From Chlamydiales bacterium (GTDB lineage: Bacteria; Chlamydiota; Chlamydiia; Chlamydiales; SM23-39), in the NCBI GenBank assembly GCA_965261025.1, contig OZ253438.1, positions 810,001 to 842,000 of the forward strand: a stretch of DNA of 32,000 nucleotides, in the 5' to 3' direction. Position numbers and translations under genes: made by a program. The notes below the pieces were generated by a model, which saw only the letters and a list, made by a program, of their open reading frames with translations, made no database searches and had not been told where the DNA came from. Shown piece by piece: positions 744 through 27,554 of the stretch. Within the stretch, counting starts at the first letter, position 1. Each line of letters opens with the position of its first letter.

Positions 744-1775
744 ATGCAAATAGATGCTTGCTTGAAGCGGGTTGATGGATACTGTGATTATGTGCCTTTT
801 CTAAGTACCGGCTCTAATCTGATAGACTTATTCTTGAAATCAATGGTTTTTCCTTTTCTTGAAGAACAGTCTATAAGGAACAACCATCACTACACTTATC
901 TGGAGGAAAAAAGTTTCTATCGATGTGCTGTACTATTAGTACCTCTAGTGGGAAATGTTCTAGTGGGATTATCCGATTTTGTAAAGGAAGAATCTAGTGA
1001 TAAAGACTCAATAGCCCCTGTTCAACAAGATGGTTACGCTCTTCAGTTTGCAAGTGATGATTTAAGAAATAATAAAGAGATAGTCTTAGCTGCCGTAAAG
1101 CAAAATGGTTATGCTCTTCAGTATGCGAGCAAAGCATTACAGAACGACAAAGGCGTAGTACTAGCTGCTGTCAACCAGAATGGTTACGCCTTTGAATATA
1201 CCAGTGAAGCTTTGAGAGAAGACGAGAATATAGCCCTAGCTGCTGTCAACCAGAATGGTTACGCTCTTCAGTATGCAAGCAAAGCATTACAGAACGATAA
1301 AGACATAGTACTAGTTGCTGTCAAACAGAATGGTTATGCCTTTGAATATGCCAGTGAAGCTTTGAGAGAAGACAAGAATATAGCCCTAGCTGCTGTGAAA
1401 CAAAATGGTTACGCTCTTCAGTATGCAAGCAAAGCGTTACAGGACGACAAAGAAATAGTACTAGTTGCTGTCAAGCAGAATGGTTACGCCTTTGAATATG
1501 CCAGTGAAGCTTTGAGAGAAGACGAGAATATAGCCCTAGCTGCTGTCAACCAAAATGGTTACGCTCTCAAGTATGCAAGCGAGGCATTAAAGAAAAATAG
1601 AAAAGTAGTAGTACATGCCATCAAACAAAATGGTTATGCTCTTGAGTATGCGGAGAAGTTTCAAAACAACAAAGGTATTGTGCTGATTGCCGTGAAAAAA
1701 ACGGGTTGTGCTCTCAAGTATGCAAGCGAAGCATTACAAAACGACAAAGACATAGTACTGGCTGCCGTTAGTTGA
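744..1775 (+). CDS. DUF4116-type tandem-repeat protein with a hydrophobic N-terminal region (candidate secreted or host-interaction protein)
   Basis: 343-aa ORF. From about residue 95 it has ten 25-aa repeats of the form QNGYALQYAS(K/E)AL(Q/R)(N/E)DK(D/E)IVLAAVK, which match my memory of the DUF4116 repeat. Hydrophobic stretches lie at residues about 20-40 and 60-78. A promoter-like element lies upstream. Confidence 0.8.
   Translation: MQIDACLKRVDGYCDYVPFLSTGSNLIDLFLKSMVFPFLEEQSIRNNHHYTYLEEKSFYRCAVLLVPLVGNVLVGLSDFVKEESSDKDSIAPVQQDGYALQFASDDLRNNKEIVLAAVKQNGYALQYASKALQNDKGVVLAAVNQNGYAFEYTSEALREDENIALAAVNQNGYALQYASKALQNDKDIVLVAVKQNGYAFEYASEALREDKNIALAAVKQNGYALQYASKALQDDKEIVLVAVKQNGYAFEYASEALREDENIALAAVNQNGYALKYASEALKKNRKVVVHAIKQNGYALEYAEKFQNNKGIVLIAVKKTGCALKYASEALQNDKDIVLAAVS
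1026..1772 (+). repeat. in-frame tandem repeat array, 75-bp unit (ALQYASKAL and AFEYASEAL types alternating as a 150-bp super-repeat), about 10 units
   Basis: The AATGGTTA(C/T)GC repeat starts recur at 1104, 1179 and 1254 (75-bp spacing). The blocks from about 1179-1328, 1329-1478 and 1479-1560 are nearly identical at the nucleotide level. The terminal units are more diverged. Confidence 0.9.
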
Positions 1776-2550: not shown

Positions 2551-3231
2551 TCAGGTTAAAACAAGATGTCTCAGTATATCTACGGAATAAATTTCTGGGC
2601 AACAAGAGATCTTTTGTAAAAGCCTGTTTTTTGTAGACTCTCCTTGGAAAAAAAAAGGTAGGAAAAAAGGAGGTTTTTCTTTTGTCCGAAGAAAAGCCTC
2701 TACTGTCGATGGACTGGTAAAAATAATTCCTCGAATTCTTTCCCAAGGAATTTTTTTCTTAAAATTTTGGTATTGGAGAAAATAAAAAATAGGAGCAAAA
2801 CAAAAAATGCCCTTTTTTTGAAAAAAAAGGAGAAGATCTTTTCTTGCTAAGCAAGATCTAGGCCAAAAAATACTTCTCTTTTCCTTTTTCTCTTCAAAAA
2901 AATCCATTAATCCCTCCTGACTAGAAATCTTCGGTATTTCAGAAAAAACGCCCTGCTCTTCTCCCTTTTTTTGGGTAGCAGGGCCTACCGAGATAAATTT
3001 TTTCTCTTGTAGAAAAGAGGCCAAACCCTTTTCTTGTACACAGGAGAAAAAAAACTCTACCGCTACCTGGCTAGTAAAAAGGATATGGGTGGCTTTTGAG
3101 AACTTTTCCGTTTCGAAAAAAAAGCGTCTCTTTTCCAAAGAAAGGGGAAAAGGCTTTATCAAAGGAGTATGGCACACTCTATCTTTTAAAAAGCAAGGAG
3201 GTTTTATTCCAAGATATAAAAATTCCTTCAT
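2551..3231 (-). CDS. hemD: uroporphyrinogen-III synthase
   Basis: 226-aa ORF with the duplicated-half pattern HILFTSQVAVEFF..ISVGPATQKK and IIFTSPSTVEAF..QGESTKNRL. It sits 10 nt downstream of hemC. Its TGA overlaps the sodA ribosome-binding site (tgAAGGAG). Confidence 0.7.
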   Translation of the reverse strand: MKEFLYLGIKPPCFLKDRVCHTPLIKPFPLSLEKRRFFFETEKFSKATHILFTSQVAVEFFFSCVQEKGLASFLQEKKFISVGPATQKKGEEQGVFSEIPKISSQEGLMDFFEEKKEKRSIFWPRSCLARKDLLLFFQKKGIFCFAPIFYFLQYQNFKKKIPWERIRGIIFTSPSTVEAFLRTKEKPPFFLPFFFQGESTKNRLLQKISCCPEIYSVDILRHLVLT

Positions 3232-3241
3232 AAAAGATGTC

Positions 3242-3907
3242 TTATGCTAGGGGAACCTTAGAAAAAAGCTGCTGTAGATCTTTTCTTTCTTTATGTACTA
3301 AAAGGCTCAATTTTCCCTGCAAGGACTCGGTCTGTTCTTCAAAAAAAAGACGGGGTAAGTAAGTCTTTTTCAGCCGAATTAAGGCTGCTTCTGCTACAAC
3401 GATGCCTTCTACCCCTTTTTTTTCTAAAAGAGCCAACCTCTCCTCGATAGTTCCTCGAATGTCAAAACAACGAAGATCCCCCCTTTTATGCTGCACCATT
3501 TTTTCTCTTCTCTCAGAAGAGACCCCCACCAAAGCTTTGAAAGAAAAATCTTTCCAGCTTCCCTTTTTTTTCATGACTAAGACATCCCTCGAATCTACTC
3601 CCTTAGAAAGAAATGCTTGGCAAAGTCCCTTCGGGAGAGGGCATGGTACATCTTTTGCAGAATGAAGCGCTCCTTCACATTTTTTCTCTAACACCAAATT
3701 GTCTAATTCCTCTGTAAAAAAGTTGGTTTTTCCCATGGCTCTTAAAGAGGTTTTCTTATCTTTATCTCCTTTGGTTTGTAAAAAGAGAGGCTCTAGAGAA
3801 ATTTCAGGAAACTTTCTATAAAAAAAAGAGGCAAATTCTGCAAATTGCGCTCTGCTTAAAGGGGAACTTCTCACTGCAATGATAAGCTTACAAAAGCTTG
3901 GCAGCAT
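3242..3907 (-). CDS. hemC: porphobilinogen deaminase (hydroxymethylbilane synthase), short form lacking the C-terminal domain
   Basis: IIAVRSSPLSRAQ, QTKGDKD, FFTEELDNLVL and GALHSAKDVP match HemC domains 1-2. The ORF stops at 221 aa. It overlaps the radA 3' end by 20 nt. Confidence 0.85.
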   Translation of the reverse strand: MLPSFCKLIIAVRSSPLSRAQFAEFASFFYRKFPEISLEPLFLQTKGDKDKKTSLRAMGKTNFFTEELDNLVLEKKCEGALHSAKDVPCPLPKGLCQAFLSKGVDSRDVLVMKKKGSWKDFSFKALVGVSSERREKMVQHKRGDLRCFDIRGTIEERLALLEKKGVEGIVVAEAALIRLKKTYLPRLFFEEQTESLQGKLSLLVHKERKDLQQLFSKVPLA

Positions 3908-5243
3908 CTTCTACCCAACGAACAAAAACCATCTCAATCTTAGTAGAAAAAGCTCGAACCTCTTCCTGATTTTTCTTTGGTAAAATCACCCTTTCAAATC
4001 CCATATGAATTGCCTCTTTTACTCTAGCCTCGACGTGTGATGCCCTTCGAATCTCCCCCGATAGCCCAAGCTCTCCCAGAGCCATACTTTTTCCTCGGAG
4101 CTCCCGGTTAGAAAAAGAAGAAATCAAGGCTAAAAAAATAGCAAGATCAATGGAAGGCTCTACAATTTTTAGCCCTCCTGCTAAGGAGACAAATACATCA
4201 CACATATGCATCTTATAACGAATTTTTTTCTCAATTACCGCTAAAATAAGTGCTAAACGACTCAAGTCAATACCTGCTCCCTTTCTTGAAGGAGAGGGAT
4301 AGGCAGTAGGAGTTACTAAAGCTTGTATTTCCAGCAAAAAGGGTTTTCCTCCTTCTAGGGAGGAAGAGATTACCGATCCAATCTTTTTTTCCTCCCTTTC
4401 TTCTAGAAAAAGCTGCGAAATCTGCTCCAACTCTACCAAGCCTTTTTCTTTCATCTGAAAAATCACTACCTCCGTGGTAGGACCAAACCGATTTTTTACA
4501 GAACGTAACAGGCGAAATCCAAAATTCCTATCTCCTTCAAAATCTAAAACTGTATCTACCATATGCTCTAATACCCTAGGTCCTGCTATTTCTCCGGATT
4601 TGGTAACGTGTCCTACTAAAAAAAGGGCAATGTTGTACACCTTGGCAAGCATCATAAGCTCCATGGTAATCTCCCTTACCTGGGAAATGGATCCTGGAGC
4701 TGAAGGAATCTCTTTTTTATACAAAATCTGAATTGAATCCACTATCAATACATCCGGCTTTAGTTGCTCTATTTGCTTGTAGATGGCAGAAAAAAGCGTT
4801 TCAGAAAAAAGAAGAATAGCTTCATGAGAAACCCCCAACCTTTTGGCTCTTAAAGCAGTCTGCTCACAAGATTCCTCTCCCGATACATATAAGATAGTCT
4901 TCCCCTTTTTTGCAAAGGAGAAGGCTAATTGCAACATCAGGGTAGACTTTCCAATACCTGGACTTCCTGCTACTAAAGTTAAAGAGCCTCTTACTGTACC
5001 TCCTCCCATAATTCTATCAAAACCGGCAAAAGAGGAATTCAGTCTTCCTTTTTCTTCCCAATTTACTTCGGAAAGTCGCACTGGTTTGGTTTTTTTTTCT
5101 TCCCGAGAAAACCGTGATTCTTCTAAAAAATCCTCTTCCTCAGAAAAACTATTCCAAGAACCGCATACACCACAACACCCAGCCCATTTCGTCTGAGTAT
5201 GGCCACATTCTTTACAACTCCAAATAGTCTTTACCTTACCCAA
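3888..5243 (-). CDS. radA: DNA repair protein RadA/Sms
   Basis: N-terminal CKECGH..CCGVCGSW zinc finger, Walker A GSPGIGKST, the KNRFGPT motif and a Lon-like C-terminal domain. 451 aa. Confidence 0.95.
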   Translation of the reverse strand: MGKVKTIWSCKECGHTQTKWAGCCGVCGSWNSFSEEEDFLEESRFSREEKKTKPVRLSEVNWEEKGRLNSSFAGFDRIMGGGTVRGSLTLVAGSPGIGKSTLMLQLAFSFAKKGKTILYVSGEESCEQTALRAKRLGVSHEAILLFSETLFSAIYKQIEQLKPDVLIVDSIQILYKKEIPSAPGSISQVREITMELMMLAKVYNIALFLVGHVTKSGEIAGPRVLEHMVDTVLDFEGDRNFGFRLLRSVKNRFGPTTEVVIFQMKEKGLVELEQISQLFLEEREEKKIGSVISSSLEGGKPFLLEIQALVTPTAYPSPSRKGAGIDLSRLALILAVIEKKIRYKMHMCDVFVSLAGGLKIVEPSIDLAIFLALISSFSNRELRGKSMALGELGLSGEIRRASHVEARVKEAIHMGFERVILPKKNQEEVRAFSTKIEMVFVRWVEDAAKLL

Positions 5244-5985
5244 GCTTATCCCTTTTTCTTAAAACTTCTAGAGCATCTCTAGCGGCCTCTTGCTCTGCTT
5301 CTTTTTTGGAAGAGCCTTTTCCTTTTCCCTGTATTTTCCCTGCAAAGAAAACGGTAACCAAAAAAATTTTTTCATGTTGCAGTCCCTCCTCTGATTCTAC
5401 CTGATAGAGGGGATGTTCTTGGAATTTTTTTTGTGAATACTCTTGAATTTCTGCTTTGTAGTTGCGCAAAGGATCTTGAATTACCTTTTCGATACATCCT
5501 TCTAGCTTCTTTATAAGTAACGATTTCATCTTTTTCCATCCCGCATCCAGGTACATAGCTCCCACTAAGGCCTCAAATACATCGGCAAAAATAGAAGTCT
5601 TCCCCCTAGAAGCCGTCTTTTTTTCCCCTTTCCCTAAAAAAATATACTCTTGAAGTTCCCAAGTTTCAAAATAAAAACAGCACGCTTTAGCTTCTACAAG
5701 CCTTGCATGAAGCATAGAAAGTTCTCCTTCCTCTTTTTCCGCAAAGCGGTGGTACAGATAGTCTGTGATCAGCAATCCCAGGACTGAATCACCCAAAAAT
5801 TCCAGCCTTTCATAACTTACCTTAAGCCAATCTTTGTTTTCATGAAGAAAAGAGCGGTGAATGAAGGCAGAAAATAAAAGCTTTTCATCAGAAAAAGCGT
5901 ATCCCAGTTTTTTTTCTATCTCTCTTTGGGTTTTTAAAAATTCTTCTTCAACAAGATTTTTTTTCTCTTTTTTAAAAAAACCCAT
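5236..5985 (-). CDS. rnc: ribonuclease III
   Basis: ERLEFLGDSVLG catalytic signature plus a C-terminal dsRBD (GKGKGSSKKEAEQEAA). It overlaps the radA start by 8 nt. Confidence 0.95.
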   Translation of the reverse strand: MGFFKKEKKNLVEEEFLKTQREIEKKLGYAFSDEKLLFSAFIHRSFLHENKDWLKVSYERLEFLGDSVLGLLITDYLYHRFAEKEEGELSMLHARLVEAKACCFYFETWELQEYIFLGKGEKKTASRGKTSIFADVFEALVGAMYLDAGWKKMKSLLIKKLEGCIEKVIQDPLRNYKAEIQEYSQKKFQEHPLYQVESEEGLQHEKIFLVTVFFAGKIQGKGKGSSKKEAEQEAARDALEVLRKRDKLG

Positions 5986-6056: not shown

Positions 6057-7265
6057 ATGATAAGACCCAATCCCCACTTTGCAAAACTCTCTGAAGGCTA
6101 CCTCTTTTCCAGAGTAGAAAAAGAGGTACAAAAGCTCAAACAAAAAGATCCCTGTCTTTCCTTTTTCAACTTAGGAATAGGAGATGTAACGCTTCCTTTG
6201 GCCTCTTCTGTAGTAAAAGAAATCTTAGAATCTACTCAAGCCCTAGAAAAAGAGCCGAAAGGATATGGTCCCAGCCAGGGCTATTCTTTTTTAAGAAAAT
6301 GGATAGCAGAAAAGGATTATAAAAATGTTTTTTCAGAAGAAGAGATTTTTATCGGCAATGGCACAAAATGCCAACTAGCACAACTCAGTTTTCTCTTTCA
6401 TCAGGAAACGAAGGTGGCCCTTTCCGATCCTTCTTATCCTGTCTACATAGATACGAACGTCTTAGCAGGAAGATCGGGTCCCTTAGAAAAGGGTCAATAC
6501 GCTTTTTTTACCTATCTCCCCTTAACAGAAGAAAATGAATTTACCCCCATTCCACCCCAACATCCGGTAGATCTTATCTATCTCTGTTCTCCAAATAATC
6601 CTACAGGAACCTCCCTTTCTAAAGAGAAGATAAAAAAATGGATCGACTATGCCAAGGAAAACAAAGCCCTGATTCTCTGGGATGGCGCCTATGCCGATTT
6701 TATCACTAGTCAAAGTCCCAAGTCCGTTTACGAAGTAGAGGGAGCTAAAGAAGTTTGTATAGAGCTTCGTAGTTTTTCAAAAAGAGCAGGATTTACAGGT
6801 CTTCGTGTCTCTTACTGCGTGATCCCTAAAGAGCTTACCTTAGATAAGGCTCCCCTTTTCTCTGTTTTTAACCGTCTAGTAGATACTCAATTTGGAGGTG
6901 TTCCCTATATCCTTCAAAAAGCGGCTGCTTCTGTATACTCAGAAGAGGGAGAAAAACAAATAAAAGCCCAAATCCAAGAATATCAGAGTAGAGCTTGTTT
7001 TCTAAGAGAAGGTCTCTCTTCTTTGGGTTTTTCTTCATGGGGGGGTGAAGATTCTCCTTTTCTTTGGGTAAAGACTCCTTCTTCTCAAACTTCCTGGGAG
7101 TTTTTTCACTACCTTTTAGAAAAAGCCCGTATTATTTCTATTCCAGGAAGTGGTTTTGGTCAAAAAGGGGAGGGATTTGTTCGTTTTTCTTCTTTTGCCC
7201 CTTTTCCTGTTTTGAAGGAGGCTATTTATCAGCTACAAAAGTTGAATATATGCGCCTTGTCTTGA
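6057..7265 (+). CDS. dapL: LL-diaminopimelate aminotransferase
   Basis: The N-terminus RPNPHFAKLSEGYLFSRVEKEV and the PLP-lysine region SFSKRAGFTGLRVSYCVIPKEL match the DapL family known from Chlamydia and plants. 402 aa. Confidence 0.85.
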   Translation: MIRPNPHFAKLSEGYLFSRVEKEVQKLKQKDPCLSFFNLGIGDVTLPLASSVVKEILESTQALEKEPKGYGPSQGYSFLRKWIAEKDYKNVFSEEEIFIGNGTKCQLAQLSFLFHQETKVALSDPSYPVYIDTNVLAGRSGPLEKGQYAFFTYLPLTEENEFTPIPPQHPVDLIYLCSPNNPTGTSLSKEKIKKWIDYAKENKALILWDGAYADFITSQSPKSVYEVEGAKEVCIELRSFSKRAGFTGLRVSYCVIPKELTLDKAPLFSVFNRLVDTQFGGVPYILQKAAASVYSEEGEKQIKAQIQEYQSRACFLREGLSSLGFSSWGGEDSPFLWVKTPSSQTSWEFFHYLLEKARIISIPGSGFGQKGEGFVRFSSFAPFPVLKEAIYQLQKLNICALS

Positions 7266-7942
7266 CCTCACAACAGATCTCTTTTTATCGGGAGAAGGGA
7301 TTCATCGAGTTTGAAAACCTTCTTTCTTTGGAAGAAAGTAAAAGAGCCCGTCTTTCAGCAAAAATGTTTTTCGAAAAAACCTTAAATATTGCTCCCGATG
7401 AGTTCATTTCCCACCCGGTTTCCTCTTTTATCGAGGAAGGGAGAGACCTCTTTTTACAAGATGCTTATTTAAAAAAGATAACTTTACGAAGATCTTTAGC
7501 AGAGATTGCTTCTAGTCTTTCTCAAGCTAAGATACTTCGCTTGGGGTTCGAGCAAGTTTTTTATACCAACGCTCAAATGTACCCTCCCTTTGCAAGTCCT
7601 TTTTATCCCAAAGATTATTTTCCTCTACAAGGGTTAGAGATTCTTCTTTGTATTCGTCTTTCCTTTTCAAAAAAAGAATCAGAAGAAAACTCTTTCCTCC
7701 CCAAAAATCAAGGAAGTGGCCTTTTTTTCTCCCCTGAGAGCTTACTAGATCTGAGACCTATTTTTACTACTTCTTCTCAATATTTTTTATGGATTGGTTA
7801 TGTGAATAAGGGCGCGCGCTTTATAGAAAAAGAGAAAAATTCCTTCTCTTTCTACTTAAAAAAGCAAGGCTATGCTACAGGGGATCTCTTAAAAGAGCCT
7901 CACCATCCCATTGTTTTTCAAAAGCAGCACAATTGGCTCTAG
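7250..7942 (+). CDS. hypothetical protein (weak PhyH/2OG-oxygenase-like N-terminus, no clear HxD motif)
   Basis: The track ORF 7064..7942 is trimmed to the ATG at 7250 (MRLVLTSQQISFYREKGFIEFENLLSLEE..). The upstream 62 codons lie out of frame inside dapL. It overlaps the dapL end by 16 nt. Confidence 0.55.
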   Translation: MRLVLTSQQISFYREKGFIEFENLLSLEESKRARLSAKMFFEKTLNIAPDEFISHPVSSFIEEGRDLFLQDAYLKKITLRRSLAEIASSLSQAKILRLGFEQVFYTNAQMYPPFASPFYPKDYFPLQGLEILLCIRLSFSKKESEENSFLPKNQGSGLFFSPESLLDLRPIFTTSSQYFLWIGYVNKGARFIEKEKNSFSFYLKKQGYATGDLLKEPHHPIVFQKQHNWL

Positions 7943-21525: not shown

Positions 21526-22575
21526 TTAAAAGGAGAGAGAAAAGGAAAACTTGGGCCTTCCCAAGGCTGCAGAGGTCGTCGAAGAAGAAACTACTGCATC
21601 CAAAAGAAAGAGCGTAAAGTCGTACCAAGAGTGAACCGCGGTACTTTCTTTTAAGGAATGGTTTTTATGAGTAAGCCACCCAAAATAGCCCCCGAAGACC
21701 GTAATAAAAGGAATAGAAAATAGGTAGTATTTTTTTCTATTTCTTTCGGAAAGAAACTGTGCATTGGGTATATGAGCTGCACCAAAAAGTAGAGAGGAAG
21801 CAATAATTCCTCCCCACGGAGTTAACCTTTCTGAAAGACTAGACTGCAGATATCCTCGAAAAAAAGCTTCTTCTCTCAACCCAACAGCAAAGGCAGAAAG
21901 AACATCCACTTCTTGGCTTCCCCTAATTCTAGCACTACAATCCTTTTCTTTTTCAAAATAGACCAGGTAACTTAAGAGCATCCCCCCTCCTAAAGCTCCT
22001 AAAATTCCTCCCCACACTTCCGGTTTTTTTAGCACTTTGTAGTTGAAAGGAGCATAGCTCAAATCTGCAAAACTATCTTCAGGCATGGGATAAAAAAAGC
22101 CCTCTTGTCGATTATACCTGCGAGCATCTCGATAAGCTGCATACATACCATATTGCCAAGTAGTTGATGCAGTAATTCTCCCTATTCGTATAGAAGGATC
22201 ATGATATTGAGCCTCACTTAAAAAGGCAGTCTTTGAAAAATCTCTTGCAAGAATTTTTCCTAAGAAAAAAGTCCCAAAAAGTTCTCCAGCGGTCCTACCC
22301 TCCCCCAAATAAAGATGCCCCAGCCCTGGTATCAAAGAAAGACTCGTGGCAAGGCCTACATTTTTTCTCTTTAAAGTAGGCATAGAAGCGCTTTTAACCT
22401 CTGAAACAGAGGGAAGTTTTCCAGGAATCACGCTGGAAACACTAGGCTTTATGTCGATCTGTGCTATTTCTTCTATTTCAGGTTCTTCTTTCTCCATTTC
22501 TGGATCTACTGTATTCTCCGCAAAAGCAAAAGAAAAACCCCATATCCAAAAAAGACATCTATATAAGCAACCCAT
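21526..22575 (-). CDS. CPBP-family (CAAX/Abi) intramembrane glutamic endopeptidase with an N-terminal signal peptide and an extra membrane region
   Basis: REEAFFRGYL (EExxxR), FGAAHIPN (FxxxH) and HSWYD (HxxxD) motifs in the C-terminal third. The N-terminus MGCLYRCLFWIWGFSFAFA looks like a signal peptide. Confidence 0.8.
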   Translation of the reverse strand: MGCLYRCLFWIWGFSFAFAENTVDPEMEKEEPEIEEIAQIDIKPSVSSVIPGKLPSVSEVKSASMPTLKRKNVGLATSLSLIPGLGHLYLGEGRTAGELFGTFFLGKILARDFSKTAFLSEAQYHDPSIRIGRITASTTWQYGMYAAYRDARRYNRQEGFFYPMPEDSFADLSYAPFNYKVLKKPEVWGGILGALGGGMLLSYLVYFEKEKDCSARIRGSQEVDVLSAFAVGLREEAFFRGYLQSSLSERLTPWGGIIASSLLFGAAHIPNAQFLSERNRKKYYLFSIPFITVFGGYFGWLTHKNHSLKESTAVHSWYDFTLFLLDAVVSSSTTSAALGRPKFSFSLSF

Positions 22576-22629
22576 TTATATCTTCTCCTAAAAAACCGGG
22601 AGATTCTATCTGCCTGTTTTTGTTTGAGT

Positions 22630-22706
22630 CAACAGAAATGACCAACCACAATGTATCTCAAGATGCCTTACATGGGGAAGTGGCCATAACAGATGAGCCT
22701 ATTTAA
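22630..22706 (+). pseudogene. 3' fragment of a second dinD-like gene
   Basis: CAACAGAAATGACCAACCACAATGTA.. aligns with dinD 24167-24240. The translation TEMTNHNVSQDALHGEVAITDEPI compares with TEMTNHNVTQDNLLGEPAITKEHI. There is no matching upstream coding sequence, because the CPBP gene start region lies there. Confidence 0.7.
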
Positions 22707-22711
22707 AATAA

Positions 22712-23179
22712 TCAAGCGGTTAAAATGGCATATTCTTTCTCTTCTTTTACTCCCCGTTTCTCCCATTCGTTGGTTAATTGCTCACGGATAGCTATACCGC
22801 GCATCCTTTTTTCAATCCAATCATCTGGATATCCCTTGGCTTTGTAAATAGCTCGGCTCCGTTTTATGGAAAGCTCTGGATCTTCTATCTCTTGGATACG
22901 TTCATAACCTATTTTTGCAAGCCATCTTTTAAAAGCTTCCGCTTTCTTAGAAGGGATAGATTGGATAATCCTAAAAATGGTTTCTGTATTTGCTGTGTCG
23001 GTTTCACGCATCTTTCCATCAGGAGCTTTTAATTTCAACTGTACGGAAAAATCGTACAGTTGACTAAAGCCTTCTTTTTCAACTAATTGAAGTTTTAAAT
23101 CTGACCAATATCTTCGAGGATTAGAGCTTTCTGTTAAAACAGCAATTTTTGAGGTTTTTTCTTCTACTTCATTTGCCAT
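22712..23179 (-). pseudogene. truncated Bro-N/phage-antirepressor-like protein (distant DinD-superfamily relative)
   Basis: The 155-aa ORF VLTESSNPRRYWSDLK..LKLKAPDGKMRETDTANTETIFRIIQSIPSKKAEAFKRWLAKIGYERIQEIEDPELSIKR..LTNEWEKRGVKEEKEYAILT matches, from memory, the middle of a widespread family of about 270 aa annotated as Bro-N domain proteins. The first about 30 aa of the Bro-N domain and about 100 C-terminal aa appear to be missing. Confidence 0.5.
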
Positions 23180-23244
23180 AAACTACCTCTTTGAAATAAC
23201 AGACTGTAAACTTATATTTTAAATAAAAGAAAATAACAAGAAAC

Positions 23245-23433
23245 TTGCCCATGACCGGACGATTATCGAACCAGATATTGGAAGGTATGCGCAAAATTTA
23301 TGAGCTGAAAGCTTTCTTCAATAGAGAAAAACAGCCTTGCTATTCTTACTAAAAGCAAGCTTTTTTCATGGAAAGTCATCCTAAGCTGATATAAGTCCCT
23401 ATAGTATTATCCCCCTTAACAAACCTAGAACCT
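23245..23433 (+). repeat. direct repeat R1 (189 bp) beginning with a tRNA-Leu 3'-end mimic
   Basis: TTGCCCATGACCGGACGATTATCGAACCAG.. aligns with R2 at 24420. The first 95 nt or so are about 85% identical, the middle has diverged, and the terminal CCCTTAACAAACCTAGAACCT is identical. Confidence 0.85.
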
Positions 23434-23461
23434 CCATCTATTATTAGATATACAAAAAATT

Positions 23462-23491
23462 TTGATAAAAAGTTGCTATTAAGTTTATAAA
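23462..23491 (+). promoter_or_regulatory. sigma-70/66-like promoter candidate for dinD
   Basis: TTGATA (23462-23467), a 17-nt spacer, then TTATAA (23485-23490; alternatively TATAAA at 23486-23491). AAGGA lies 9 nt before the ATG at 23529. Confidence 0.35.
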
Positions 23492-23528
23492 GTTACATCC
23501 CAGTTATCCTTAATAAGGAACTTTTACC

Positions 23529-24386
23529 ATGTCTAATAAAGAGATTCTCCAAAAACGACAAAGCCACTTCGATAGTTTAGCCCAATCTACTCCTGAAGAA
23601 AACGTTGAGTTCTGGTTCGCTAGAGATTTACAGGAGCCTCTTGGATATGCAAAATGGGAAAATTTTATAACTGCTATCCTACGTGCCATAGAATCTTGCA
23701 AAACAACAAATTGTGATCCCAACGACCATTTTCGTGGCGTCAGGAAAATGGTCACATTAGGTAGCGGTGCTGAGCGTTCTATAGAAGATTTTATGCTAAC
23801 TCGCTATGCCTGCTATTTAATTGCCCAAAACGGCGATCCTAGAAAAGAAGCTATAGCTTTTGCTCAAAGCTACTTTGCCATCCAAACAAGGAAACAAGAA
23901 TTAATAGAAAAAAGAATGCTTTTACAAACCAGATTAGAAGCTAGAGAAAAGCTTAGAGAATCAGAGAAGACTCTTTCACAAAACATATATGAACGAGGAA
24001 TAGATGAAATGGGTTTTGGTCGCATTCGCTCTAAAGGAGATCAGGCTCTTTTTGGAGGTAACTCCACCCAAAGCATGAAAAACAAGTATGGAATTATACA
24101 AAGTCGTCCTCTTGCTGATTTCTTACCAACTTTGACTATTGCTGCCAAAAATCTAGCAACAGAAATGACCAATCACAATGTAACCCAAGATAATCTACTA
24201 GGAGAGCCTGCTATAACAAAGGAGCATATCCAAAATAACCAAAGTGTCCGAGATATGCTTGCTGAGCGTAATATCAAACCAGAAAATCTCCCTCCAGAGG
24301 AAGACATCAAAAAATTAGAGCGACTTGTAAAATCAGAAGAGAAAAAGCTGATAAAACAGTCTAATAAACTTCCTAAAAAAGTTTAA
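23529..24386 (+). CDS. dinD: DNA-damage-inducible protein D homologue
   Basis: The 285-aa product is collinear with my memory of E. coli DinD. WFARDLQEPLGYAKWENF aligns with WSARQLGKLLGYSEYRHF. LTRYACYLIAQNGDPRKEAIAFAQSYFAIQTRKQEL aligns with [36 protein letters not shown]. Confidence 0.85.
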   Translation: MSNKEILQKRQSHFDSLAQSTPEENVEFWFARDLQEPLGYAKWENFITAILRAIESCKTTNCDPNDHFRGVRKMVTLGSGAERSIEDFMLTRYACYLIAQNGDPRKEAIAFAQSYFAIQTRKQELIEKRMLLQTRLEAREKLRESEKTLSQNIYERGIDEMGFGRIRSKGDQALFGGNSTQSMKNKYGIIQSRPLADFLPTLTIAAKNLATEMTNHNVTQDNLLGEPAITKEHIQNNQSVRDMLAERNIKPENLPPEEDIKKLERLVKSEEKKLIKQSNKLPKKV

Positions 24387-24419
24387 TTACCAAAACCCAA
24401 GTGTTTAACGCTTAAACTG

Positions 24420-24606
24420 TTGCCGATGACTGGACAATTATCGAACCAGGTAATCGAAGGAATGCGCAAAATTTATGAACTAAAGCCTTTCTTAATAGAG
24501 AAAACCAGTCTTATTTTTCTTGATAGAAGCGCATTCTTTCCGTAGAAACTCGTTATCATCCAGTAAAGTTGTCCCAGTGTTGTCTCCCTTAACAAACCTA
24601 GAACCT
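24420..24606 (+). repeat. direct repeat R2 (187 bp) beginning with a tRNA-Leu 3'-end mimic
   Basis: TTGCCGATGACTGGAC-AATTA-TCGAACCAG: 16 nt plus 9 nt are identical to 27129-27153 of the tRNA-Leu gene region, interrupted by a 5-nt insertion in the T-loop equivalent. The rest aligns with R1. Confidence 0.85.
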
Positions 24607-24872
24607 ACTCCCCTTATTTCTGATAGCATCTTTTTTTGACTTTGTTAACTGAGCTTCAATTTCTTGTACAATAGGAAGTTTAGAACACAAGAGTCCTTCA
24701 AGCGTCCCTGGGATACATAGAATAGAGAAAGTTTGAAAATGCAATAAAAAAAGCTCTAACAGCTTTGTAAACAGTCTGGAAATAATCCTAACTATCCCTT
24801 TGTCGGCTCCGACAAACTGATCTCAGGAAGGAAAAATGCTACTCAAATTGTTAGAAGATTAAGTTGCATATA

Positions 24873-25202
24873 TCAGAGATTTGAATCAAAAAAATATTTC
24901 CAAACAGAACTGCCAAAATTTACCCAAAAATATGCGACAGAAAGAATCGTCAAGCAAAGTCCGCATAAGAACAATAAGCACCGGCTCATCCATTGAGAAA
25001 CTCTTCCTGATCTTTGAGTTAGAAAATCTTTACGCAACAAGGTGACGCTACTATCATCGGGTATGATCTGAAAGGAGGAAAAACTATGACAAAAAGGGTG
25101 CGGTTCTTGTGAAGCAAACCAATCTACCTTGAGAAATTGTTCAACCGGCACTAAAGTTTTTTTGCGCTTCTTTCCCGATTCAGGATCAAACCTTTCCTCC
25201 AT
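24873..25202 (-). CDS. hypothetical ORF, possibly a decayed gene fragment
   Basis: Only an ORF-track ORF of 109 aa with no motif I recognise. The C-terminal half looks like out-of-frame low-complexity sequence, and another frame reads more protein-like (MDEPVLIVLMRTLLDDSFCRIFLGKFWQF). No convincing ribosome-binding site. Confidence 0.2.
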   Translation of the reverse strand: MEERFDPESGKKRKKTLVPVEQFLKVDWFASQEPHPFCHSFSSFQIIPDDSSVTLLRKDFLTQRSGRVSQWMSRCLLFLCGLCLTILSVAYFWVNFGSSVWKYFFDSNL

Positions 25203-25274
25203 GGGGGTGAAAGGTAGTTTATAGCACGGCCTCAGATTAAAAGAATTTTTTATTTGAAAAAAAACTCTCTAACC

Positions 25275-25289
25275 ACTAATTTTATTAGT
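25275..25289. promoter_or_regulatory. small palindrome upstream of abiEi (candidate antitoxin operator)
   Basis: ACTAAT-TTT-ATTAGT is a perfect 6-bp inverted repeat 25 nt upstream of the ATG at 25314. It is short and in AT-rich DNA, so this is speculative. Confidence 0.15.
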
Positions 25290-25313
25290 AACTATGGAGA
25301 ATATCTTCAAGTC

Positions 25314-26120
25314 ATGAACATGGAAACATTTCTAGCTCATAACCAGATTTTTACGATTAAAGAGATAAGGTCTGCTCTCAGAATAGAGAAAGGCAATAGC
25401 ACTTTGAATAACTTATTAGCGTATCATCTTCGACAAGGGCATATCGTCCGAATTCGAAAAGGTCTTTATTACACAATTCCTAGAGGAGCTGACGCAAAAA
25501 CCCATCCGATAGACCCTTATTTAATTGCCAGTAAAATGACTTCTGATGCCACCTTGGCATATCATACCTCTTTGGGATTTCATGGAAAGCTGCATTCTTT
25601 ACGAACTGATTTTATCTATATTACTCAGAAAAAATTAAAACCTCCTTTTGTTTTTTGCAACTCCACTTTTAAAAGCATTTCTATTCCCAAAGGAACTTTA
25701 GCTAGCCCCAGTTTTGGCATTGAGATTGTCGATTATCAGGGATGTAAGCTTCGGGTTACTACTTTAGAGCGAACTTTTGTAGATATTCTTGATAGACCTA
25801 CTTTAATCGACAACTGGGAAGAAATTTGGCGTTCTTTAGAATCTATTGAATATCTAGACCTTCAACAGGTTCTTGCATATGCAAGACTTCTAAATAACGC
25901 GACCACTTATGCTCGAATAGCATTTTTTCTTGATCAACACTGTGATACATTTGGTCTTTCAGAAAAAGACTTAGTAAATTTTGATAAATTTATACCCAAA
26001 AGCCCCCACTATTTAGACCTTCATAGTAAAGAGCCTAATCAGCTCATTGCTAGATGGAATCTTATTGTTCCAAAATCATTACTCCAAAGAACTTGGGAAG
26101 AGCCTCATGAAAATCTCTAA
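25314..26120 (+). CDS. abiEi: AbiEi-family antitoxin / transcriptional regulator (type IV TA)
   Basis: N-terminal winged-helix region FTIKEIRSAL..LLAYHLRQGHIVRIRKGLYYTIP, then ASKMTSDATLAYHTSLGFHG and TLERTFVDILDRP, typical of AbiEi. The start is uncertain: the track uses TTG at 25254, and I prefer ATG at 25314. The stop overlaps the next gene's ATG by 14 nt. Confidence 0.75.
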   Translation: MNMETFLAHNQIFTIKEIRSALRIEKGNSTLNNLLAYHLRQGHIVRIRKGLYYTIPRGADAKTHPIDPYLIASKMTSDATLAYHTSLGFHGKLHSLRTDFIYITQKKLKPPFVFCNSTFKSISIPKGTLASPSFGIEIVDYQGCKLRVTTLERTFVDILDRPTLIDNWEEIWRSLESIEYLDLQQVLAYARLLNNATTYARIAFFLDQHCDTFGLSEKDLVNFDKFIPKSPHYLDLHSKEPNQLIARWNLIVPKSLLQRTWEEPHENL

Positions 26121-27082
26121 AGAGCTACTTATTCGAGAATCCAGTCGCACGGGTTTTCGTTTGGAAATATTGGAAAAAGTATGGCACCTAATGAACGTTC
26201 TTGAAGGAATTAATGCCCATCCTTTTCTACAAGAACGTTTGGTCTTAAAAGGAGGCACAGCCCTCAATCTGTTTTATCTTCGATCTTCCTCGTCTATCAG
26301 TTGATATCGATTTAAACTATATAGGGATGCCAGATCGAGAAGGAATGATACAAGAACGCCCTCTTATTGAAAAGGCTATGGAAGCTATTTTTCAACGAGA
26401 AAACCTTATGATACGCCGCATCCCAACCAAACATGCTGGTGGAAAGTGGCAGCTAAAATACCAAGGTGTTCTTGGCAATCAAGGTAACCTAGAAATTGAC
26501 CTGAATTTTATGTTCAGAGTCCCTCTTTGGGATATTCAAAAATGTTCCTCTAAAGTTATTGGTCATCATCAAATACACGGAGTTCGAATTCTTGATTTTC
26601 ACGAGCTAGCAGCTGGGAAATTAACCGCATTATTTGGTAGAAATGCCTCACGCGATTTATTTGATACGCATCATTTACTAACCAATATACAGTTCAATTT
26701 AGAGCGGTTACGGCTAGCCTTTATTCTGTATATCGGCATGAGTTCAATTAAAAATCCTCATGAACTCTCCCCTGAATCACTTTTGTTCGATGAAGCTGAT
26801 TTTCGAAAACAGCTTCTGCCTGTCTTGCGAAATACCAAGAACGAACGTGATCATCAATCTTGGAAAGATATCAAACTTCAAGAGTGTAAACAGGCTCTGG
26901 CCAAACTATTGCCTTTTAATGAACAAGAAGCAAAGTTTTTAAAAATCCTGATTCAAAAAGGAGAAATTCGCCCATCTCTACTTACAAATGAACCCCTCAT
27001 GCAATCTAAAATTGAAAAACTACCTTCCCTTCATTGGAGAGCCTCACTTGTGCAGTCATTACCGAAACAAGTAATTTCTTAG
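26107..27082 (+). pseudogene. abiEii: AbiEii-family nucleotidyltransferase toxin (DUF1814) interrupted by a single frameshift
   Basis: The first frame (26107-26304) gives ..LVLKGGTALNLFY, then nonsense and a stop. From 26279 another frame reads FDLPRLSVDIDLNYIGMPDREG.. and continues to 27082, including AAGKLTALFGRNASRDLFDTHHL. Joining the frames at about 26278 restores the canonical KGGTAL / RxSxDxD / K..R..D.D motif order. Confidence 0.8.
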
Positions 27083-27129
27083 CTAATGACTAAAAAATTC
27101 TATATTTATGAAAAATACTTCTGGAAATT

Positions 27130-27212
27130 TGCCGATGACTGGACTCGAACCAGCACCTTATTGCTAAGAGCAGATTTTGAATCTGCCGTGTCTACCATTT
27201 CACCACATCGGC
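27130..27212 (-). tRNA. tRNA-Leu (anticodon CAA), class II with a long variable arm; CCA not encoded
   Basis: The reverse complement is GCCGATG-TG-GTG-AAATGGTAGA-CAC-G-GCAGA-TTCAAAA-TCTGC-TCTTAGCAATAAGGT-GCTGG-TTCGAGT-CCAGT-CATCGGC-A. All stems pair (one G-U pair in the T stem), the variable arm forms CTTA/TAAG, and the T-loop is TTCGAGT. Confidence 0.9.
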
Positions 27213-27259
27213 AAATGGGAGGACTTTATCATGGAAAGAAAATTAAAGCAAACTCCTCT

Positions 27260-27478
27260 TTAAGATCCTTTTATAGAAGATTCCCGCTCTTCTTCCCATT
27301 TATAAGGGGCTCTTTTTTGAAGTTTCGGAGTAGTATAGGGATAAAAAACGTCCTTGTCCCCCCTTTCAATAAACTCCCCTTTTGCCTTTTCCCTTTGGAG
27401 TCTTTCCTTTTTAGAAAGCTCTAACTCACTGCAAGAGAACAAGAAAAGACTCATGCCCAGAAAATAAAAAAACCGCAT
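27260..27478 (-). CDS. small putative lipoprotein (72 aa)
   Basis: MRFFYFLGMSLFLFSC has a signal peptide with a lipobox-like LFSC, followed by a charged tail. GGGAG lies just upstream, though the spacing is short. Confidence 0.45.
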   Translation of the reverse strand: MRFFYFLGMSLFLFSCSELELSKKERLQREKAKGEFIERGDKDVFYPYTTPKLQKRAPYKWEEERESSIKGS

Positions 27479-27554
27479 AACTCCCTTTTTTGACTCGATA
27501 GTAGTACTTTTTGGGATTTTTTTTTATAGTCCGGTTTTTGAGGGGGTAAGGATA

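Follow-up and report, generated by a model that had tools for sequence, protein, structure and literature searches.

How does a run of accessory genes come to be stacked against the 3' end of a tRNA gene when nothing in the run encodes an integrase? The question is raised by a 32,000-nucleotide stretch of the genome of a Chlamydiales bacterium (assembly GCA_965261025.1, contig OZ253438.1, positions 810,001 to 842,000; hereafter the window, to whose coordinates all positions refer unless another locus is named), in which about 4.5 kb lie between a CPBP-family protease gene and a tRNA-Leu(CAA) gene. An initial annotation had described these 4.5 kb as a degraded island left by successive integrations. 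The analysis reported here indicates that they probably consist of four small mobile cassettes in tandem (two survive only as remnants), inserted site-specifically at the tRNA 3' end and mobilised in trans.

The integration target, tRNA-Leu(CAA), is intact (27129-27213, minus strand; ARAGORN, with Rfam RF00005 at 59.2 bits) and is the sole tRNA found in the window by ARAGORN and Rfam. Its 3'-terminal 25 nt, at 27129-27153 on the plus strand, are referred to as the core, C. A 16-mer, TTGCCGATGACTGGAC, the reverse complement of the tRNA-Leu 3' end, occurs three times in the 32 kb in one orientation, with no mismatch at 27129 and 24420 and two mismatches at 23245. Only 0.08 copies were expected, and none of 100 shuffled sequences gave three. 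At 23245 and 24420 the 16 nt are followed by a 5-nt insertion in the position of the T-loop (GATTA and AATTA, respectively) and then by 9 further nt, TCGAACCAG. The 25-nt tRNA-end copies first reported at these two positions are thus present and in the same orientation as the tRNA, but they are not contiguous.

Rather than isolated scars, the two copies are the left ends of a direct repeat of about 200 bp, designated R. R(A) (23245-23445, plus strand) consists of a core copy matching at 14 of 16 positions, GATTA, TCGAACCAG and the repeat body; R(B) (24420-24618, plus strand) consists of a 16/16 core copy, AATTA, TCGAACCAG and a repeat body of about 170 bp. The pair is 75% identical. One highly conserved block lies beside the core (TCGAACCAG..ATGCG(C/A)AAAATTTATGA) and another at the far end (CCTTAACAAAC(C/T)TA(G/C)AACCT); conserved stretches within R may also be written as a TCGAACCAG...ATGCGCAAAATTTATGA block and a CCTTAACAAACCTAGAACCT block. 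Within the window and the loci of relatives, R was found at this locus only. Exact R patterns gave no hit in genome, viral and metagenome collections except at the orthologous locus (L085), a weak negative as exact scans miss divergent copies, and blastn of R against phages and plasmids returned nothing meaningful. The alternative of a genome-wide dispersed repeat, which the initial annotation had named as its refutation, found no support in these searches.

From left to right the array reads ...Bro-N-B-C-R(A)-dinD-y-C-R(B)-YhcG'-...-AbiEi-AbiEii-X-C-tRNA, where the arms are B (65 bp, upstream of Bro-N), y (33 bp, downstream of dinD) and X (61 bp, starting inside the end of AbiEii). The tRNA-proximal unit, cassette 4 (24420-27128, plus strand), has core copies at 24420 and 27129. 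Cassette 3 (R(A)-dinD-y, 23245-24419, plus strand) is intact at 1.17 kb. Both attachment (att) sites are retained in these two cassettes as core copies on each side; the distal site has been lost in cassettes 1 and 2.

Loci of relatives, cited below by number, were recovered with the kinase gene just upstream of the tRNA as bait. Homologue names and record titles assign the recovered relatives to Chlamydiota, and an orthologous tRNA-Leu stands upstream of the same kinase in L001, L002, L081-84, L086, L088 and L089. Occupied sites were found in only three species, all of them metagenome assemblies: that of the window, that of L001 and that of L081-L085. The amino acid identity of the kinase to that of the window is 83% in L001, 61% in the L081-L085 species and 45-52% in more distant relatives. 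The L001 array is ...R'-YhcG-X-C'-R-Bro-N-B-C-tRNA. The L081-L085 species has a single 1.17-kb cassette, flank-C-R-dinD-y-C-tRNA. In L082 and L085 a 24-nt stretch of the tRNA end is repeated directly on either side of it, uninterrupted and without the 5-nt insertion, the simplest state of the site. Cassettes common to these species stand in different orders.

Comparison of the three species placed each of three arms in two different contexts. Arm y adjoins R(B) in the window, and in L081-L084 its neighbour is the real tRNA-Leu; the entire R-dinD-y unit aligns over 1206 nt at 90.4% identity with L082 1247-2437, a segment between a methyltransferase gene and the real tRNA-Leu. Arm B adjoins R(A) in the window and the real tRNA in L001, where Bro-N-B abuts the tRNA with nothing inserted between them, and B plus the core aligns at 91% with this L001 Bro-N/real-tRNA junction. 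Arm X adjoins the real tRNA in the window and a copy of R in L001 (8633-8693, 98% identical). In all three swaps the break falls at the first nucleotide of the core. The site is empty in more distant relatives, where a housekeeping gene lies 75-300 bp from the tRNA 3' end (PFOR in L002, an enoyl-ACP-reductase-like gene in L088 and a SET-domain gene in L089). Five further tRNA-Leu loci (L080, L086, L088, L089-91 and L092) were either empty or met a contig break, and none carried an integrase. Successive site-specific integration at the tRNA-Leu 3' end, as originally proposed, is strongly supported by these junction swaps and empty sites. Of the usual architecture of tRNA-targeting elements, the intact tRNA, the distal direct repeat and the empty sites in relatives are all present, and the element-encoded integrase is absent.

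The swaps are the reciprocal products that would be expected from conservative site-specific recombination between an arm-C-R attachment site (attP) and the C of the tRNA. In the proposed mechanism, a cassette would consist of the core (the last 16-25 nt of the tRNA), R, and one or two cargo genes ending in their own arm, with R, a conserved non-coding arm of about 180 bp, always taking the place of the tRNA body beside C. In circular form, a cassette would have arm-C-R for its attP; by recombining with C in the tRNA it would regenerate an intact tRNA (arm-C-tRNA) and leave oldflank-C-R on the far side, and each arrival would push earlier cassettes away from the tRNA. The X-C-R sequence between two tandem units in L001 is equivalent to such an attP junction and is an indirect sign of a circular form. 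For an R that bears the 5-nt insertion, strand exchange would be confined to the 16 nt on its 3' side (the 3' strands of the T-stem and acceptor), because the insertion would otherwise pass to the tRNA, which stays intact. For R of the L082 type, without the insertion, exchange could occur anywhere in the 24 nt.

The same arrangement might be sought without any site-specific recombinase, through local amplification of R and RecA-dependent or illegitimate recombination (unequal crossing-over, or homology-facilitated uptake from relatives). The R copies, at about 200 bp and 75-90% identity, are adequate for homologous recombination, and both arrays contain microhomology junctions: that between a Bro-N fragment and mid-R at L001 5277, a 75-bp deletion in Bro-N, and the fusion of a dinD fragment to Bro-N. 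Recombination of R with R, however, can neither make nor resolve an arm-C-tRNA junction, since the tRNA and the cassettes share only the core of 16-25 nt, and R beyond the core resembles the tRNA body and flank no more than shuffled sequence does (z -1.5 to 1.0). Three arms break at one nucleotide in three genomes, and the backbone identity between species, 59-77%, is too low for replacement of the locus by homologous recombination. This explanation was accordingly judged quite improbable. A related idea, that R is a decayed duplicate of the tRNA and its upstream flank, was prompted by a common TCATGGAAAG; it was rejected, as semi-global alignment of R beyond the core with the tRNA body and upstream flank was no better than with shuffled sequences.

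The age of the cassettes bears on a different alternative, namely that full-size prophages, integrative and conjugative elements (ICEs) or integrative and mobilizable elements (IMEs), each with its own integrase, integrated serially at tRNA-Leu and decayed in place. DinD shares 78-86% amino acid identity across thousands of unrelated bacteria, including Chromatiaceae and Parachlamydiaceae; protein identity was therefore discounted as a sign of transfer, and neutral sites were compared instead. At four-fold degenerate sites, identity between the window and the L082/L083 species is 82% in dinD and 33% in the adjacent kinase; between the window and L001 it is 91% in Bro-N and 46% in the kinase. 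In non-coding DNA, R and the dinD upstream region are 84% identical between the window and L082, compared with 59% for the tRNA-kinase intergenic region. Judged by these sites, the divergence of the cassettes is far more recent than that of the host backbone. R(A) shares 84-90% identity with R from the dinD cassette of L082, compared with only 75% with R(B), and R therefore travels with its cargo.

An origin by decay in place would agree with the several truncated or frameshifted genes and with the absence of an integrase today, and stacking with partial tRNA copies is the classic pattern of such elements (bioRxiv 10.1101/2020.12.28.424599; PMC5704250). The R-dinD-y unit, however, has the same boundaries and the same 1.17 kb in the window and in the L082 species, at 82% four-fold identity against a kinase saturated at 33%; Bro-N-B (91% against 46%) and X are shared likewise. 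Independent decay would not give identical units, and no trace of an integrase, conjugation or phage structural gene was found in any array. Serial decay of large elements is thus unlikely. Shared boundaries and high neutral-site identity argue that the cassettes have therefore spread between species as small units without an integrase, and the earlier description of a fossilised island gives way to one of discrete 0.9-2.7 kb units, with identical boundaries across species, that are younger than the backbone.

Searches of the large open reading frames (ORFs) of the window gave no integrase, excisionase or transposase, and those of six frames of 24387-25260 no recombinase remnant at E<=1; the absence noted in the initial annotation is thereby confirmed. 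Nor was a recombinase found in the arrays and flanks of L001, which has only a Tn5-type transposase fragment, or of L082/L085. No helper element was detected at the tRNA-Leu locus of any relative contig compared, and no parent element with R in genome, viral, metagenome, phage and plasmid collections, where mainly exact-pattern scans, insensitive to divergence, were used.

Host XerC and XerD acting on dif-like sites in C or R would account for the missing integrase, and the units resemble dif modules (0.77-3.0 kb; PMC6449649) in size, in lacking a recombinase and in cargo that includes toxin-antitoxin genes. The highest score against the XerC and XerD arms anywhere in 22576-27240, however, was 13/22 matching positions, below the shuffle mean of 14.5, and dif-like sites were rejected on this basis (the reference was the E. 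coli dif, and the host's own may differ). The repeats are moreover direct copies of 16-25 nt of the tRNA end, not 28-bp sites in alternating orientation. Xer-dependent movement, as in integrative mobile elements exploiting Xer (IMEX) and Acinetobacter dif modules, was considered very improbable. An integron-like system, with R as attC and the tRNA end as attI, would fit single-gene cassettes at one site that share a recombination element and arrive beside an anchor. It is contradicted by the lack of an intI gene next to the array, by cargo lying both ways round with a promoter-like site of its own for dinD, and by DNA folds of R, which gave no attC-like hairpin on either strand (z 0 to -1.9 against shuffles), so that attC-like folding was rejected; such a system is scarcely credible here. 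As the cassettes encode no recombinase, the Xer route lacks support and the integron route fails, a recombinase acting in trans, probably a tyrosine recombinase, would be required; its gene could lie on a helper element or elsewhere on the chromosome, beyond the window.

Several points weigh against site-specific insertion with mobilisation in trans. The mechanism would rest on the comparative anatomy of three occupied species, in which no recombinase, helper, circular junction or excised form was observed. The exchange point is defined by an identity of only 16-25 bp, which sets limits to the crossover without mapping it. The internal cores show some degeneration, two mismatches in the copy at 23245 and TTGCAAGGTGGCCGGAC in that of L001. 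The 5-nt insertion beside the core would be unusual for an active att site, and some or all of the window units may no longer be mobile. Both arrays also bear illegitimate rearrangements (deletions, the dinD/Bro-N fusion and an insertion sequence fragment in L001), and therefore not every junction is a clean recombination product. Lastly, the search for R elsewhere covered sequence collections, by exact patterns, and phages and plasmids, by blastn.

The gene content originally listed for the array (AbiEi/AbiEii, dinD, a truncated Bro-N-like gene and a dinD fragment) was borne out by Pfam and PADLOC. Cassette 4 is organised as R(B), a YhcG remnant, unassigned DNA, AbiEi, a frameshifted AbiEii and X. 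AbiEi, an antitoxin/regulator, is apparently intact (25254-26120, plus strand; PADLOC AbiEi, 3.3e-90 over the full profile; Pfam AbiEi_4). The AbiEii nucleotidyltransferase toxin gene (26107-27082, plus strand; Pfam; PADLOC AbiEii, 1.7e-62 from profile position 76) has a +1 frameshift at about 26278-26281, placed by the translations just ahead of the RLSVDIDL motif. The AbiE pair, an abortive-infection and type IV toxin-antitoxin system, is consequently not intact, with AbiEi at full length and AbiEii frameshifted before its catalytic motif, and the frameshift could come from a sequencing or assembly error. Arm X (27068-27128, plus strand) forms the tRNA-proximal end of the cassette and starts in the last 15 nt of AbiEii. 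About 650 bp of this cassette had been called unassignable. The first 130 bp or so proved to be the frameshifted C-terminal remnant of a YhcG/DUF1016 PDDEXK nuclease gene (24609-24738, minus strand), with 80% blastn identity to L001 7419-7527 and a tblastn match to YhcG residues 326-356 (E 3e-4). For the remaining 515 bp or so (24739-25253) the description holds: they have no Pfam match in six frames at E<=1, and a 109-amino-acid ORF within them (24873-25202, minus strand) matched neither Pfam nor PADLOC.

In cassette 3, dinD (23529-24386, plus strand) encodes a protein with an N-terminal Bro-N domain (Pfam Bro-N, 3e-10; PADLOC PDC-S13, 6.8e-117) whose homologues are named DinD, and arm y (24387-24419, plus strand) forms the tRNA-proximal end. 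The cassette 2 remnant (22712-23244, minus strand) consists of a Bro-N gene (22712-23179; PADLOC PDC-S13, 7e-66) and arm B (23180-23244), its own R having been lost, and is 93.7% identical to L001 8994-9424. Compared with a 244-amino-acid orthologue, this Bro-N gene has lost 75 bp in frame at about 23141/23142 and is truncated at its 3' end (22715). Of cassette 1 (22592-22711, plus strand) there remains a piece of another, more divergent dinD, which is fused to the truncated Bro-N; positions 22630-22715 are 76% identical to 24157-24242, and tblastn matches residues 210-241 at 69% (E 4e-8). If insertion always occurred at the tRNA-proximal core, an order in which the leftmost units are oldest would be consistent with the heavier damage there, only loosely, as cassette 4 is damaged too. 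Inside Bro-N, a 7-nt loop, GAAAAAT, lies between 10-bp inverted repeats CAACTGTACG and CGTACAGTTG (23036-23062). The loop is inverted relative to L001 9314-9342 (ATTTTTC), a micro-inversion of a hairpin loop within coding sequence.

Other roles for R were considered. R was rejected as a known RNA, since Rfam gave no match at E<=5 except the real tRNA, the T-arm is disrupted and there is no 5' acceptor partner; it also folded no better than shuffled sequence. A short ORF, MTGRLSNQILEGMRKIYELKAFFNREKQPCYSY followed by a stop codon, occurs in R in the window (23251-23352 and 24426-24545, plus strand), in L001 (8717-8800) and in L082 (1262-1345). The stop is conserved, and changes fall in third positions at 10 of 18 variable columns (p=0.043 for one phase, about 0.13 when corrected for three phases). 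The start codon is not kept in L082 or L001, and the R(B) copy is frameshifted; with this corrected p value and start codon, a coding function was not established. A promoter-like site, TTAACA-17-TATTAT (23416-23444, plus strand), lies 85 nt upstream of dinD. Its -35 element is inside the invariant right-hand block of R, and its -10 element is good only in dinD cassettes (R(A) of the window, and L082) and poor where the cargo faces the opposite way. R may contribute the -35 element to a promoter reading outward into the cargo.

The array of L001 adds to the history of these units. Its counterpart of cassette 4 is R, an intact YhcG and X; it lacks AbiE, yet the last 15 nt of AbiEii are kept within X. 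That retention suggests an ancestral R-YhcG-AbiE-X unit from which different parts would have been lost in the window and L001 lineages. Also in L001, positions 6997-7400 hold a frameshifted N-terminal fragment of a Tn5/IS4-type transposase (Tnp_DNA_bind, 1e-15), which truncates one R copy. Positions 5175-5512 are a mosaic of Bro-N residues 169-202, the middle and right parts of R, and two pieces of YhcG, a composition that points to repeated illegitimate recombination among cassettes.

All assignable cargo in the arrays of the window and L001 matched PADLOC models. YhcG matched PDC-S02 (7e-141), the full-length Bro-N of L001 matched PDC-S13 (1e-104), and a DUF4143 ATPase in L001 matched PDC-S01 (4e-48); DinD also matched part of the model for a Type I restriction-modification specificity subunit (2e-46). 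The PDC families are candidates put forward by association with defence islands, not validated systems. "Defence cassette" would be a reasonable label for the cargo, with function predicted from these matches. The phylum has been reported to show a "quasi absence" of anti-phage systems (DefenseFinder, PMC9090908). In blastn of the island against plasmids and phages, matches fell only in the dinD and Bro-N coding regions, at 68-78%; relatives of these two genes are found on phages, phage satellites and plasmids. The Bro-N gene of the window (22715-23137) shows 71% DNA identity to a "phage antirepressor" gene of plasmid CP008938.1 from Candidatus Paracaedimonas acanthamoebae, an amoeba symbiont, a match that hints at gene exchange within amoebae. 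Cargo occurs in both orientations.

The array is flanked by the CPBP protease on one side and by the tRNA and a two-component system on the other. The CPBP/Rce1-like membrane protease (21526-22575, minus strand; Pfam Rce1-like, 3e-18) belongs to the core genome and marks the left chromosomal flank; its L001 orthologue (3062-4090, 67% DNA identity) likewise bounds the L001 array. The rest of the window is housekeeping: haem biosynthesis, transketolase, AlaRS, Mfd and a two-component system. A higher G+C content had been suggested for the island (43-47% in dinD). Sliding 1-kb windows gave 35-39% across 22500-27500 and 32-41% elsewhere, and a compositional island was rejected as G+C content is flat. 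Between the tRNA and the kinase lies a 72-amino-acid ORF (27260-27478, minus strand), whose place is held in more distant relatives by a gene of 270-286 amino acids (Peptidase_M15-like; L002 9129-9959, and also in L086, L088, L089 and L092); the clade with cassettes seems to retain only a truncated form of it. In four relatives' assemblies a contig breaks off inside dinD, at tRNA-Leu(CAA) or no more than about 150 bp away from it (L080, position 1; L086, 1-156; L092, 1-62; L081, position 1), which fits repeats or population heterogeneity. At the other end of the window, a 343-amino-acid protein of six DUF4116 repeats (744-1775, plus strand; 1e-99) has no relation to the array.

Among known systems, the closest comparisons are with cis-mobilizable elements (CIMEs) and tycheposons. 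CIMEs related to ICESt1/ICESt3 of Streptococcus thermophilus have attL and attR, lack integration and transfer genes, and form tandems by accretion (PMC5704250). The present units are alike in keeping att sites, in lacking integration and transfer genes, in their tandem arrangement at the 3' end of a target gene and in depending, as proposed, on a recombinase from another element, and by definition they would qualify as CIME-like. Classical CIMEs, however, derive from ICEs or IMEs by decay, measure several kb or more and usually lie beside a helper. The units here measure 0.9-2.7 kb, carry one or two genes and a common arm of about 200 bp, and recur as identical discrete units in different species; neither remnants of ICE or IME genes nor a helper at the locus were found. 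Tycheposons of Prochlorococcus encode their own tyrosine (910/937) or serine recombinase, often have a replication module, and span about 10-20 kb (bioRxiv 10.1101/2020.12.28.424599). They too are stacked at a tRNA with partial tRNA copies between units and newcomers pushing older units inward, in small genomes without classical machinery for horizontal transfer, and with niche or defence cargo; the units here differ in having neither recombinase nor replication module. The array may thus represent stacking of the CIME/tycheposon type with new features, namely minimal units, a conserved arm and recurrence across species.

In function the units also recall integron cassettes, which are single-gene and recombinase-less, have their own recombination site, share one anchor and form arrays that can be reshuffled, but here there is no adjacent intI, R is not attC-like, the anchor is a tRNA, and the cargo genes, oriented either way, have promoters of their own. 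Acinetobacter pdif modules/IMEX, of 0.8-3 kb, are recombinase-less, include toxin-antitoxin genes and are found nearly unchanged in different species (PMC6449649). They differ in using 28-bp XerC/D sites and in being mainly plasmid-borne; for the present array the target is a tRNA gene on the chromosome, and the scan for dif-like sites was negative. It is conceivable, though doubtful, that a small clade of environmental chlamydiae possesses a dedicated tRNA-anchored system of cassette capture, equivalent in function to an integron, in which a recombinase encoded elsewhere or by a helper would recognise the tRNA-Leu 3' end and R and insert, excise and reshuffle single-gene defence cassettes circulating as recombinase-less minicircles.

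Stacking of elements at tRNA genes is known, and the units described so far either have their own integrase or are visibly decayed large elements. The transferable unit here appears to be about minimal in size, a site of some 200 bp and one gene. Chlamydia-like organisms are hard to manipulate genetically, and if the cognate recombinase were identified, the core and R would make a ready-made tool for site-specific integration in them. Gene flow between obligate intracellular bacteria is poorly understood. With three units caught in both junction states across three species, the locus offers a compact and testable model for the spread of recombinase-less cargo.

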